NCBI GenBank assembly: GCA_963708295.1
Contig: CAVPSJ010000007.1
Span: 32,001-96,000 of the forward strand
Direction of reading: 5' to 3'
DNA from: an uncultured delta proteobacterium
GTDB lineage: Bacteria; Desulfobacterota; BSN033; UBA1163
Length of the DNA: 64,000 nucleotides
Shown in pieces: positions 8,932-33,879 of this stretch. The notes under the pieces are model-generated. The model was not told the DNA's origin. It searched no databases and saw nothing but the letters and a program-made list of their open reading frames with translations. Position 1 is the first letter of the stretch, and every line of letters starts with the position of its first letter. The position numbers and the translations under genes were made by a program.

Positions 8932-9146
8932 ATGTCAAATGTCAAAGTCTAAAGTCCAAATGAAATCCAAAGCTCAAATGGCAAAGAAAAAAGAGGAAGA
9001 ATGGAATAATGGAACATTGGAATACGGGGTTAAAAAAACATTCTTCGTATCTCTCTCATCATCCCTTCATTCCATCATTTCAGGACTATTTTTTATTTTG
9101 ATATTTTGTCATTCATTTGACATTTGAACTTTGAAATTTGAAATTT
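8932..9146. repeat. Nested inverted tandem-repeat element (outer TCAAATG-type 7-mers, inner AATGGAAT-type 8-mers)
   Basis: atgtcaaatgtcaaagtctaaagtccaaatgaaatccaaagctcaaatggc ... tttgacatttgaactttgaaatttgaaattt; inner gaatggaataatggaacattgg ... cttcattccatcatttc. Confidence 0.85.
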
Positions 9147-22098: not shown

Positions 22099-22197
22099 AG
22101 AATTAGAGTAATGAGTTCGGAGTTCATGGTTCGGAGCCCGAAAACTATTCAGAAAATCTAACACTCCGAGCTCCCAACTCCCAACTCCGAGCTATCA
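22099..22197. repeat. Inverted 7-mer tandem-repeat element filling the nadK-recN spacer
   Basis: Sense strand: tagctcggagttgggagttgggagctcggag ... ctccgaaccatgaactccgaactcattactctaattct-ATG. Confidence 0.8.
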
Positions 22198-23082: not shown

Positions 23083-23155
23083 TCACCCCGTATCTCGTGT
23101 CCGTTTCCATGTCCGGAAGAAAACAATTTAAAGGGACGCGGTCAAAGACGTGTCC

Positions 23156-24187
23156 TTACATAAGATGATACTTTATTCGAATCTTTTTTGACAACTCCTT
23201 TAGCACCTCAAACGCTTTCTCAACGGTCTTCTCCTTATCCACATTCAGCAGGTTGCAGGTTGCCGGTGCCAGAAGCGATTGTCGAAGGAGTCTCTTTGAA
23301 TCGATTCCCTTCAGAGAGAGAGCCTCCCAAAAACTTTCCAACCTCTCCATCAGAGAATCAATAGTCTCCTGCTCCAAAAGCTCTGTGTACGTAGGGACAA
23401 TCCCCCAGGAAAGGACTCCTCCCCTCTCTACAAATTCTTTCAGGGAGGGGTAGTGGACGATCATGGCCCCGGAATTCAAGGAATCGAAGGAAAGGATATC
23501 TATCTTTGATTTGAGGAGAAAATCCCAATCCGGCTTGGCACAAAGATGAACCCCTTTGGGTCCTTCCAGCCCTTCCAAAAACCGATCAAAATCAGTCTTC
23601 GCCTGGAACTCGTTGTATCCGGATAACGCATTGAAGATGAGCGCCAATCCGGGATCATCGACCCATACAAAGGCATTGGGGTTTCTCTCTTTCAATTCCC
23701 GGTATTGTCGATTCACTTTCTTTTGAATAAAATCGAATAAAACCTCTTTGACCTCATCATGATAATTGATCGATTTTTGGTTCTCGTCCACGATCTTCAT
23801 CCCCAGACTGATGGGACTGATCACCTGGCCCCGGATGGCGGCGTAATGAGAGAGGTCTCTTTCCAAAAAACGATGGTAGACGAGAGAAAACTCTTTTGTC
23901 AATTCAAAGGTCCCGGGGTCATCTGCCTTCTCAAAATAGGAAGGAAGCTCCTGTTCGAAACGGGAAAGGTTGAAATCGATTTTTTGATGGACCGGGTCGA
24001 TTCTCACCCCCGGAAAATTCTCCAGAGCCTGCACGTACATGTCCTCGAAGTAACTGACCTTCGGAAGTTGGGGCCAAAATGGGATGTCGAGGGTCAAGGC
24101 GACGTCCAGAGCTCTCTGAACATCTTGGTGAGGCATAATGCCCATAGCAGTGGTCTGACAATTGGGCGAGAAACCTAGGGCGACCAT
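23156..24187 (-). CDS. Core (single-barrel) cobalamin-independent-type methionine synthase, MesB-like
   Basis: PFWPQLP..EDMYVQ, DDPGL, Zn ligands GVHLC and PATC, SWGIVP. Confidence 0.7.
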   Translation of the reverse strand: MVALGFSPNCQTTAMGIMPHQDVQRALDVALTLDIPFWPQLPKVSYFEDMYVQALENFPGVRIDPVHQKIDFNLSRFEQELPSYFEKADDPGTFELTKEFSLVYHRFLERDLSHYAAIRGQVISPISLGMKIVDENQKSINYHDEVKEVLFDFIQKKVNRQYRELKERNPNAFVWVDDPGLALIFNALSGYNEFQAKTDFDRFLEGLEGPKGVHLCAKPDWDFLLKSKIDILSFDSLNSGAMIVHYPSLKEFVERGGVLSWGIVPTYTELLEQETIDSLMERLESFWEALSLKGIDSKRLLRQSLLAPATCNLLNVDKEKTVEKAFEVLKELSKKIRIKYHLM

Positions 24188-30408: not shown

Positions 30409-31562
<1,154 letters not shown>

Positions 31563-31589
31563 CGTGTCCGTGTCCGTGATCCGTGTCCG
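31563..31589. repeat. Left arm of a perfect 27-bp inverted repeat built from CGTGTC units
   Basis: cgtgtccgtgtccgtgatccgtgtccg is the exact reverse complement of 31988-32014. Confidence 0.97.
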
Positions 31590-31598
31590 TTATCAAAC

Positions 31599-31949
31599 TT
31601 ATTCCAAAGATTTAGCTAACTTGGTCAACATCTGACTAACACGTTCGTATTGGGGTAAAAGCTCTGAATATTTATTCTCAATAATATATTTTAGATCTTT
31701 CACCAATAGCAATTGATATTTCATTTCGCCCGTGGACCCTTTTGCAATACCAACGAATTGCCTATACTCTTTCCTATTTAAGCGGTGGCCTCCCTCCATA
31801 AGGTTCATTGGTATGGAATAAGCTGCTCTTCTCATTTGGGAAACGAGTCCAAATTTCTCTCCCCCGGGAAAGGATTTTGTCAGCTCGAAGATTTCAAGCG
31901 CCAATGAATGAGACAGTTTGAATACGTCTAATTCCTCTACAGTTTTCAT
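31599..31949 (-). CDS. Four-helix-bundle protein (23S rRNA IVS protein / Avd-like family)
   Basis: EELDVFK..FP..EKFGLVSQMRRAAYSIPMNLMEG..IAKGSTGE; 116 aa; SD GGAG. Confidence 0.93.
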   Translation of the reverse strand: MKTVEELDVFKLSHSLALEIFELTKSFPGGEKFGLVSQMRRAAYSIPMNLMEGGHRLNRKEYRQFVGIAKGSTGEMKYQLLLVKDLKYIIENKYSELLPQYERVSQMLTKLAKSLE

Positions 31950-31987
31950 GGTTAATCTCCTTTCGCGATCGGGAAAGTTGAGTTTTC

Positions 31988-32014
31988 CGGACACGGATCA
32001 CGGACACGGACACG
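31988..32014. repeat. Right arm of the perfect 27-bp inverted repeat
   Basis: cggacacggatcacggacacggacacg. Confidence 0.97.
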
Positions 32015-33036: not shown

Positions 33037-33149
33037 ATTCAAATCCAAAAGTCAAAGGTCGAAAGCTAAACGAATGTCAAAAAGATTTAATGTCAAATCT
33101 TGACGATTTGACAAATTTCATTTGAACTTTGAGCTTTAAAATTTGACAT
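33037..33149. repeat. Inverted TCAAAT-type tandem-repeat element
   Basis: attcaaatccaaaagtcaaaggtcgaaagctaaa ... tttcatttgaactttgagctttaaaatttgacat; abuts the upstream stop at 33150. Confidence 0.85.
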
Positions 33150-33879
33150 TTAAGATTCATATAATAACTTTTTCCTCATCTCCTGGAACTTCTTTTGCGC
33201 CTCCTCATAATCCTCATGCCGGCCGATATCGAGCCAAAAGTCACTCGAAGGATAGCAGACTACTTTTTCCCTTTGCTTGATGAGTTTCTGGATCAATTCG
33301 GGAAAATCCAGGTATTTCTCGGAGGGAATCCATTTCAAAACTTCTCTCTCAAACACGTAGATCCCCATGCTCACAGAGTAGGACAGCGTTGGTTTTTCAA
33401 TATATCGAGTCAGTTGATGGGCACGATTAAATTCCATGACTCCCAATTCCAGATGGGACTTTCTTCTGAGTCATCGCAATGGTGACCATGCCTTGATGCC
33501 GGCGATGATAGCTGATCAACTTTTGATAATTGAGAGTGGTCAGGATATCTCCATTCATCACCAGAAAGGTCTCTGGAAGATTTGGGATGATGGAAAGAGG
33601 ACCAGCCGTTCCAAGAGCTTTCTCTTCTTTCGAATAACGAATGTCGACCCCATATTGGTCTCCATTTCTAAAATAAGCCGAGAGGAGCGGCTCTGATTGT
33701 TGACTCACGGTGAAGACGATCTCTTTAATCCGAAAATGGGCTAACTGCCTGACGATGATTTCAAGAATGGGCATTCCGTCAATAGGCATCAGAGGTTTAG
33801 GAAAGACGGTGGTATAGGGAGCAAGTCTTGTCCCTTTCCCCCCAGCCAGGATGATTGCTTTCATTTTTTCTCCCATCAC
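33150..33879 (-). CDS. Sugar-phosphate nucleotidyltransferase, frameshifted near 33440
   Basis: ILAGGKGTRLAPYT..PKPL, LGTAGPL, VMNGDIL, EKP, WLDIGR. Confidence 0.88.

Follow-up and report, generated by a model that had tools for sequence, protein, structure and literature searches.

We found that the 452-nt block at positions 31563-32014 of the window, by which we mean the whole 64,000-nt stretch of DNA that was analysed, is very probably a mobile cassette of the kind known as the intervening sequence (IVS) of 23S rRNA. The block carries a small gene of the PF05635/TIGR02436 four-helix-bundle family within perfect inverted repeats, and it fills the operon junction between a dehydratase gene and a DegT-type aminotransferase gene. 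Our comparisons demonstrate its architecture, the generality of that architecture, the presence of one cassette clade at several junctions, exchange independent of the flanks, decay to gene-less hairpins, and selection on both the protein and the arms. The explanation that we favor as a whole, a selfish mobile IVS-type cassette that sits in an operon junction and is accommodated there by a stem in the RNA, is probable; the RNA-stem steps taken separately, that is, folding out of the insert or its cutting by RNase III in the transcript, stand close to an even chance. All cassette positions are window coordinates, the sense strand is the minus strand, and the source genome is called G000. In the direction of transcription, the junction is composed of the following features:

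About 33040 to 32018, minus strand: dehydratase gene, split into frames by probable 1-nt assembly insertions.
32020-32015, minus strand: stop codons TAA TAA of this NAD-dependent epimerase/dehydratase gene (PF16363/PF01370 match), whose ...GSYPL* C terminus is kept in relatives.
32014-31988, minus strand: 5′ arm, 27 nt of CGTGTC(C)-type tandem units that start with the first base past the stop codons.
31987-31950, minus strand: leader of 38 nt, with a Shine-Dalgarno (SD) sequence AAAGGAG at 31963-31957, 7 nt ahead of the ATG.
31949-31599, minus strand: PF05635/TIGR02436 four-helix-bundle gene of 116 codons (ATG 31949-31947, TAA 31601-31599; pI 9.3).
9 nt between the stop codon of this open reading frame (ORF) and the 3′ arm, minus strand: spacer.
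31589-31563, minus strand: 3′ arm, 27 nt of GGACACG-type units, the last base of which adjoins the DegT ATG.
31562-31560, minus strand: ATG of the DegT/DnrJ/EryC1 aminotransferase gene, the N terminus of which is kept in relatives.
About 31562 to 30409, minus strand: DegT gene, split by probable 1-nt insertions.

The two arms (31563-31589 and 31988-32014) were detected by a repeat search as 27-nt stretches that are 100% complementary and lie 398 nt apart. They are made of imperfect tandem units of 6 or 7 nt (CGTGTC-C, with a single GTGATCC), and the unit type of the 5′ arm matches that of relatives from the same clade. The 14-nt core of the arm has five matches in the window at ≤2 mismatches, as compared to 0.26 expected, and none of 100 shuffled sequences reached five. 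The ends of the cassette are backed by relatives, in which ...GSYPL* upstream and M(K/I)(T/K/A)W(R/K)YPLSDID downstream are conserved. A domain search assigned the flanking genes to GDP_Man_Dehyd/Epimerase and DegT_DnrJ_EryC1, followed by a FemAB-like acetyltransferase. An earlier note on this DNA had described 27-bp perfect inverted arms that enclose a 116-aa ORF and abut TAATAA and ATG, and this anatomy was confirmed at exactly these positions. In agreement with the same note, no transposase gene is enclosed in the cassette, and no direct repeat was seen at the outer ends of the arms, neither here nor at at least 10 other insertions that we read. Its remark that the DegT gene has no clear SD was too strong, as the final arm unit places GGA 4 nt ahead of the ATG. 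A search of the cassette region against Rfam gave nothing near threshold for any known RNA family. The frames of the DegT and dehydratase genes are broken at window positions 30862, 31062, 31117, 31157, 31237, 31340, 32536, 32651, and 32661. At these nine places, contigs from related populations lack one base; the breaks are therefore probably single-base insertion errors of long-read assembly and not signs of pseudogenes.

The known element closest in build is the 23S IVS of Coxiella burnetii, which, according to the available text of PMC4990558, measures 428 nt and has a 28-bp stem of GACAGAT heptamers varying in number, together with a PF05635 (S23p) ORF. RNase III cuts it midway along the stem, and the ORF is reported to be decaying and apparently untranslated; ORF-bearing 23S IVSs of Leptospira and others are cited in the same text. 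The cassette resembles this element in size (452 versus 428 nt), in its terminal inverted repeats (27- versus 28-bp stem), in its tandem 6-7-nt arm units, the number of which varies between strains or species, and in having a PF05635 ORF in the loop and no transposase; such IVSs have long been seen as selfish. The link drawn by the earlier note between the PF05635 family and RNase III-excised 23S IVSs with heptamer-repeat stems holds on the evidence of that text. In contrast to the IVS, the cassette lies between two protein-coding operon genes and not in helix 9, 25, or 45 of 23S rRNA. Within the loop, its ORF has a strong SD, and purifying selection on this ORF is strong, as opposed to the Coxiella ORF, described as decaying and untranslated; cutting by RNase III, demonstrated for Coxiella, is presumed for the cassette. 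The cassette is built like an IVS, but the defining rRNA location is absent.

The 116-aa ORF scores 119.9 bits on PF05635 (cutoff 33.8) and 110.7 bits on TIGR02436 (cutoff 24). By sequence similarity, its closest relative of solved structure is the pentameric XCC0516 (PDB 2gsc, E 8e-16, five chains in the entry); for the window protein, a homopentameric ring of four-helix-bundle subunits is putative. Against its closest relatives, dN/dS of the ORF is 0.03-0.06, and the protein is, by this codon-based measure, under strong purifying selection. Avd, the accessory protein of diversity-generating retroelements, is distantly homologous and belongs to the same family of four-helix-bundle pentamer folds; it binds both a partner enzyme and nucleic acid. 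PF05635 is itself described as Avd-like in the available text of PMC10053308. We rejected a defense-system reading, as the protein matches no PADLOC family. No tblastn match to the protein was found in 50,697 phage records.

To place the cassette in its genomic context, we used the G000 genome (4.95 Mb, 20 contigs, 91% complete), the closest named relatives of which are metagenome-assembled genomes (MAGs) of Thermodesulfobacteriota. A profile search returned 13 PF05635 matches; as a GIY-YIG-like ORF interrupts one of the genes, they amount to 12 loci. Bacteroides thetaiotaomicron, from a control set, also matched the family. At 11 of the 12 loci, inverted arrays of 6-9-nt units flank the gene, and in the 260-320 nt on either side their pairing surpasses that of every one of 100 shuffles; the exception is C15:206998. 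Each locus has a unit of its own (AAGGTT, CGGAGAC, GGACTGA, GATCAGT, GAGTTCATT, GCGCAGA, TGCAAAATTA, CAAAGGT, and others), and the paralogues are only 18-35% identical to the window protein. Gene and arms have therefore been associated for a long time, and recent copying inside the genome does not account for the association. The family is present in 90 of 151 genomes of the phylum. In a sample made of the best locus from each of 30 genomes, from which one locus with too short a flank was dropped, 22 of 29 loci passed the same shuffle test, mostly with a period of 7. Both sets bear out the expectation of the earlier note that PF05635 homologues carry inverted tandem-repeat flanks. CGTGTCC-type units are kept in close relatives of the window protein, and copies from Brocadiaceae and Scalinduaceae MAGs, 61-63% identical, have related GTG-type units. 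The median protein identity was 57.5, 46.7, and 40.4% at unit distances of 0, 1, and 2 and about 38-39% beyond; we set this co-variation aside as a sign of recognition, as it is compatible with plain co-inheritance.

Next, we searched 41 genomes, including G000, and read the dehydratase-DegT junction in nine of them. It was found in the following states:

G000, G010, and G004: PF05635 cassette of the same clade.
G003: diverged PF05635 gene with GTGATTC-type arms.
G015 and G012: CGTG-type arms around a Y1_Tnp (IS200-like, PF01797) gene with its own hairpins resembling repetitive extragenic palindromes (REPs).
G009: CGTG-type arms around a DUF559 gene (PF04480, E 4e-40).
G023: no cassette; two arm-like units within a spacer of 24 nt.
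G024: no cassette; about 70 nt that include a G/C-rich hairpin and, ahead of the ATG, one GGACACG unit.

Cassette-free orthologues of this junction, which the earlier note proposed to look for, do exist, but the stop codon directly followed by ATG that it expected of them is found in neither G023 nor G024. Similar arms enclose different cargo at this one site. The Y1_Tnp and DUF559 genes of G000 have flanks of their own (unique 23-31-nt inverted repeats and G-rich palindromes, respectively) that are unlike the heptamer arms, and G/C-rich hairpins like the DUF559 flanks disrupt PF05635 genes in L043, G006, and G012. Because of these distinct flanks and of the G-rich hairpins that break PF05635 genes, we regard the Y1_Tnp and DUF559 genes as having invaded resident cassettes secondarily. 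The same two observations led us to down-weight a general landing pad, in which the arms would be independent of PF05635.

The closest relatives of the window cassette (97% and 93% protein identity) do not lie at the dehydratase-DegT junction but between the NAD kinase gene (ppnK) and recN. This junction was located in 33 of the 41 genomes, of which the closest 23 were read, with seven further loci of class-level relatives left unparsed. The states that we found form a series:

G022: untouched, TAATG stop/start overlap.
G018: untouched, 5-nt spacer.
G009, G004, and G020: cassette of clade A, arms of CGTGTCC units (in G020 with an unclear start codon).
G006 and G012: decayed clade-A cassette.
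G002: contig begins inside the cassette.
G024: gene-less hairpin of 82 nt with CGTGTCC arms.
G003, G011, G010, G001, G014, and G021: cassette of a different PF05635 clade (118 aa, 72.9 bits) with GAGTTAA-type arms.
G015: gene-less hairpin, arms of the GAGTTAA type.
G000, G016, G023, and G005: gene-less hairpins of other units.
G007, G013, and G019: other small palindromes.

All nine intact PF05635 ORFs at this junction run in the direction of ppnK and recN. Between the stop codon and the outer arm end lie 0-4 nt, and between the other outer end and the ATG 2-13 nt; no direct repeat was found at these ends in any of the insertions read at this site. The untouched state with the stop next to the start, anticipated for the dehydratase-DegT junction, is thus encountered at this sister site, in G022 as an overlap and in G018 as a spacer of 5 nt. 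With an untouched spacer of ≤5 nt, an insertion can leave both genes intact only if it adjoins stop and start, which explains why the cassette appears to lie exactly between the two genes without the need for nucleotide-precise targeting. A third site of the clade lies directly past a gene ending in ...FFKIF* in G021 (L024:1537-1887) and in L032; this gene encodes a protein with DGDG-type repeats.

One clade with CGTGTCC arms therefore occupies three gene junctions, namely, dehydratase-DegT, ppnK-recN, and the position after the ...FFKIF* gene, and we compared the divergence of its cassettes with that of the surrounding genes. At ppnK-recN, the rate of synonymous substitution (dS) between the cassettes of G009 and G004 is 0.071 (se 0.03), as compared to 0.68 in ppnK (229 codons) and 0.54 in recN (250 codons), and identity is 93-100% inside the cassette and 77-92% outside. 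At dehydratase-DegT, the cassettes of G000 and G010 differ with a dS of 0.51, while the dehydratase gene is saturated (proportion of synonymous differences, pS, 0.74); identity drops at the arms, from about 90% inside the cassette to about 76% outside. The window copy differs from the copies at ppnK-recN by dS of 0.445 and 0.47, with host genes differing from each other by 0.77-0.98. Between G000 and G004 at dehydratase-DegT, there is no identity step, and the cassette has likewise reached saturation (pS 0.76), which means that slow change at silent sites is not an inherent property of the ORF. From the dS contrasts and the identity steps, it follows that cassettes were exchanged between lineages and sites after the hosts had diverged. 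Judged by these comparisons, the cassette is exchanged horizontally, independently of its flanks. The earlier note had anticipated neither this exchange nor the other selfish genes (Y1 transposase, DUF559) that relatives have within the arms at dehydratase-DegT.

The arms are constrained as well. The 3′ arm of the G000 copy is identical at 27 of 27 positions to that of the G009 copy at another site, even though the ORFs show a synonymous difference of 0.336. By simple arithmetic, the chance of finding no arm difference between G000 and G009 at that divergence is about 2e-5, and we conclude that the arms are constrained in sequence. As regards classical insertion sequences (ISs) and MITEs (miniature inverted-repeat transposable elements), the cassette has terminal inverted repeats and copies at several sites, while a transposase and a target-site duplication are absent. 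The Y1_Tnp genes of G000, considered as a possible autonomous partner, have ends that differ from the cassette arms. Our best guesses for the mode of movement are use of the arms as short homologies or a hairpin-specific activity, both of which fit the identity steps and the replacement of cargo.

Gene-less hairpins are abundant in G000. We paired Tandem Repeats Finder (TRF) arrays with a period of 5-12 that lie ≤1.6 kb apart and obtained 75 inverted pairs at a score of ≥14, as compared to 6 in a reversed (not complemented) control. At a score of ≥13, there were 108 pairs, 71 of them gene-less with loops of ≤150 nt. Their unit families include AAATCCG with 12 copies, AAACTCT with 5, AATACTCC with 4, and further ones, and many of the hairpins begin 1-9 nt past the upstream stop codon. 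Gene-less copies are dispersed: those at C17:227173 and C4:1022564 are 93.9% identical over 147 nt and have unrelated flanks. About half of the gene-less unit types are matched by a PF05635 locus of the same unit in G000, while the largest families are unmatched. For these, a relation of one master to one repeat, as between REP doublets forming hairpins (REPINs) and REP-associated tyrosine transposases (RAYTs), is unsupported. Two solo arrays of the CGTGTCC type are present on C2 and C18 of G000. Among 52 G000 hairpins between co-directional genes, the first arm in the direction of these genes is rich in purines in 27 cases and in pyrimidines in 9, in counts that are not independent, as the hairpins fall into families, and that have the clade of the window's cassette among the exceptions.

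The window itself contains gene-less hairpins and a related array:

8932-9146: gene-less hairpin.
22099-22197, minus strand: gene-less hairpin built of CGGAGTT/GGGAGTT units; it occupies the ppnK-recN junction, where relatives hold the cassette clade under study.
23096-23160, plus strand: degenerate CGTGTCC-type array followed by a leader-like start, as judged by eye.
33045-33152 (start approximate), minus strand: gene-less hairpin of A-rich/T-rich heptamer-like units upstream of the dehydratase gene; its inner stem is a terminator-like site at 33091-33113.

The earlier note had suggested that the cassette might be the coding member of the gene-less family of the window. The three hairpins are made of units that differ from CGTGTCC, and the cassette is therefore not their master copy. 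The array at 23096-23160 is probably what remains of a cassette from the clade under study.

How the insert is accommodated in the operon can be outlined as follows. The PF05635 gene would occupy the loop, of about 400 nt, of a long stem formed by the inverted arrays of the 6-7-nt unit. Having no promoter of its own, it would be transcribed by read-through from the host operon, and in the transcript, the arms would pair as a 27-bp stem. Two outcomes are conceivable. The stem may fold the insert out, such that the end of the upstream gene is brought beside the start of the downstream one; at ppnK-recN, the upstream 3′ end carries a GGGGAG-type SD of the formerly overlapping junction. Split ribosome-binding sites of the fold-out type occur in phage T4 genes. 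Alternatively, host RNase III may cut the stem as in rRNA and release a stem-capped, translatable PF05635 mRNA, with the host cistrons still usable; unlike in the Coxiella case, the released mRNA would keep its SD. Either way, the insert would be tolerated at junctions that were once translationally coupled.

Several observations are in line with this outline. Simple scans found no promoter-like site ahead of the ORF on the minus strand and no terminator behind it, and the leader of only 38 nt is too short for a promoter of its own. The gene is co-oriented with both neighbors at 11 of the 12 G000 loci and in all intact copies at the two junctions. When the sense RNA of 512 nt was folded computationally, the minimum free energy structure and the centroid structure both had the arms paired (-157.5 kcal/mol, z = -5.4), and none of 100 shuffles was as good. 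A gene for RNase III is present in G000. In the leader (31950-31987), aligned with the same stretch of L026-L029 and L043, RNAalifold predicted a small conserved but weak hairpin of 5 bp directly after the 5′ arm, together with one of 4 bp (six sequences, -2.76 kcal/mol, three covarying pairs). We make no claim of an SD-sequestering leader hairpin, as a helix drawn by hand did not stay in one register across the six sequences.

Other observations weigh against the favored explanation. Transcription, stem formation, and cleavage are all inferred, the stem from a modeled fold. The stems show no excess of G·U pairs on the sense strand, with 72 G·U-type and 62 A·C-type mismatches in 51 co-directional hairpins; nothing therefore singles out RNA over DNA as the level at which pairing matters. 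As the Coxiella ORF is apparently untranslated in the available account (PMC4990558), the rRNA precedent does not show the purpose of the protein. Among loci fetched by similarity to the window protein, from close to distant relatives, only 8 of 17 beat all 50 shuffles, and at dehydratase-DegT, a clean TAA-ATG is lacking in the cassette-free relatives. The largest gene-less family, AAATCCG with its 12 copies, has no PF05635 gene bearing matching arms in G000, and the lack of a matching gene for the biggest families speaks against a simple relation in which the protein serves its own repeat. Last, the low dS of the cassette could partly reflect constraint on the RNA of the ORF, an argument that is weakened by the pS of 0.76 in the same-site comparison of G000 and G004.

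The strongest alternative is that the arms act mainly as DNA, as recombination or transposition ends, with the RNA stem as a by-product. They would be single-strand hairpins or cruciforms on which an enzyme of the host or one supplied in trans acts, or short portable homologies that let an incoming cassette take the place of a resident one. It overlaps with the favored explanation on the identity of the element and differs on how the arms work; we consider it unlikely. The location of the cassette/flank identity steps at the arms, the different cargo within similar arms at one site, the lack of target duplications at the insertions read, the dispersal of the gene-less copies on C17 and C4, and the mismatch counts in the stems would all be expected of it. 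It would also account for an arm polarity that tracks the direction of the neighboring genes (27 versus 9), since polarity of that kind is known from strand-specific single-strand transposition. However, we could link no candidate enzyme to the arms. In G000, the genes for Y1 transposase and DUF559 come with their own, different flanks, and no reverse transcriptase was found, as the 91%-complete genome gave no PF00078 match. Moreover, a need for host transcription better explains why the gene almost always runs in the direction of the host genes, and the rRNA relatives act as RNA stems, as described in the available text of PMC4990558.

A second alternative is a domesticated module beneficial to the host, in which the PF05635 protein would be an RNA-binding regulator of a polysaccharide or amino-sugar operon and the hairpin a processing or attenuation site. 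The strong purifying selection on the protein, its basic character (pI 9.3), and the placement of several G000 cassettes in sugar or polysaccharide clusters (C15:197-208 kb) would suit such a role. We nevertheless regard it as improbable, as the same clade occurs at unrelated junctions such as ppnK-recN, relatives have no cassette or other selfish genes at dehydratase-DegT, twelve paralogues lie at unrelated places, and decay series exist. A remnant of a diversity-generating retroelement with an orphan Avd gene was rejected as highly improbable: the matches to the bAvd-like PF22296 (E 6e-4) and to the Avd model NF033474 are weak, the latter at 19.9 bits against a cutoff of 80, there is neither a reverse transcriptase (PF00078) in the genome nor a template/variable repeat pair to be seen, and the neighbors are sugar-pathway genes.

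A broader reading, which we put forward only tentatively and hold to be unlikely in its full form, goes beyond the favored explanation. According to it, the PF05635 cassettes would make up a class of mobile elements that is new and does without a transposase; the pentameric protein would be the element's own factor and recognize its tandem-unit arms as RNA or single-stranded DNA. They would spread among operon junctions and rRNA helices by an undescribed hairpin-dependent route, and the RNase III-type stem would let the element live inside any host transcript, such that the rRNA IVSs are the first-noticed special case of a larger family.

Two other kinds of known repeats invite comparison. Paired inverted heptamer arrays are described in Xanthomonas (GGGAATC repeats, 70 and 75 pairs; PMC4692102) and abundant heptamer repeats, the short tandemly repeated repetitive (STRR)/TAACTGA repeats, in cyanobacteria and Beggiatoaceae (PMC4679880). 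According to the available text of both sources, these are intergenic tandem heptamers that often form two convergent arrays capable of a stem-loop and that vary in length among close relatives, and they match the approximately 70 gene-less hairpins of G000. In contrast to our cassettes, the available text mentions no PF05635, S23, or four-helix-bundle gene between the arrays, and it views the repeats as G-quadruplex or regulatory elements and not as parts of a cassette. The REP/REPIN-RAYT (Y1) systems and MITEs share with the cassette hairpin-forming intergenic repeats, a small gene within inverted copies, and gene-less copies that disperse. They differ in that the cassette gene matches no known kind of transposase and each paralogue has its own repeat unit; furthermore, no gene matches the biggest gene-less families, a target duplication is absent, and the Y1 genes of G000 have other flanks. 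The gene enclosed here belongs to PF05635 and is not the Y1 HUH transposase flanked by a genome-dispersed repeat that characterizes REPIN/RAYT systems.

Knowledge of the rRNA IVSs and of their S23p/PF05635 ORF dates back to about 1990, and the origin and movement of the IVSs and the function of the protein are still unexplained in the available text of PMC4990558. A full-text literature search, with subscription journals and supplements outside its scope, returned no account of PF05635 cassettes with repeat arms outside rRNA. New here, on the strength of comparative sequence data, appears to be an IVS-type cassette in operon junctions, with horizontal exchange, a series of site states, and selection on protein and arms. 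An IVS-type cassette thus lives inside ordinary operons, well conserved and apparently expressed. It is exchanged between species independently of its flanks and leaves hairpins of heptamer repeats that fill many intergenic gaps. A curiosity of rRNA would thereby become a widespread element with a natural series of empty, full, gene-less, and decayed sites, which makes the insulation of the operon by the stem and a role of the protein in mobility or RNA processing directly testable. For annotation, it means that thousands of genes labeled four helix bundle protein and many intergenic tandem-repeat hairpins may belong to one kind of element.

Some further observations concern neighboring or nested elements. 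The Y1_Tnp genes within CGTG-type arms in L017 and L021 (G015 and G012, respectively) are bracketed by GGGTCGTCCC.GACCCC-type REP-like hairpins, so that the nesting is three deep. G000 has eight ORFs of about 320-338 aa with a Y1_Tnp domain (C4:1008279, C20:73782, C14:290302, C12:89690, C16:103315, and others), several of which have their own unique inverted repeats of 23-31 nt, with at least three types of ends. Its four DUF559 genes (C16:131325, C14:41930, C15:117441, and C12:224058) are all flanked by G/C-rich palindromic hairpins of the GGGGAGGG type. Gene-less copies of these DUF559-type hairpins were found inside broken PF05635 genes of relatives (compare L043:905-960). At C15:199304-200061 of G000, a PF05635 gene with CAGTGCTG-type arms is split by a 107-aa GIY-YIG-like ORF, a selfish gene nested in a selfish cassette. 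The surrounding region, C15:197000-208600, holds four PF05635 loci (five matches, one gene being split) in about 11 kb, each at a separate junction, and resembles a polysaccharide gene cluster, with polysaccharide deacetylase-like and glycosyltransferase-like ORFs nearby.

The G000 23S gene (C8:287926-290970) has no PF05635 match and no long inverted or tandem array. Its match spans 3045 nt, as compared to the 2925 positions of the model, and the spacer just upstream of the gene contains a tandem array of CCTTAA repeated 4.3 times (L046:1456-1481).

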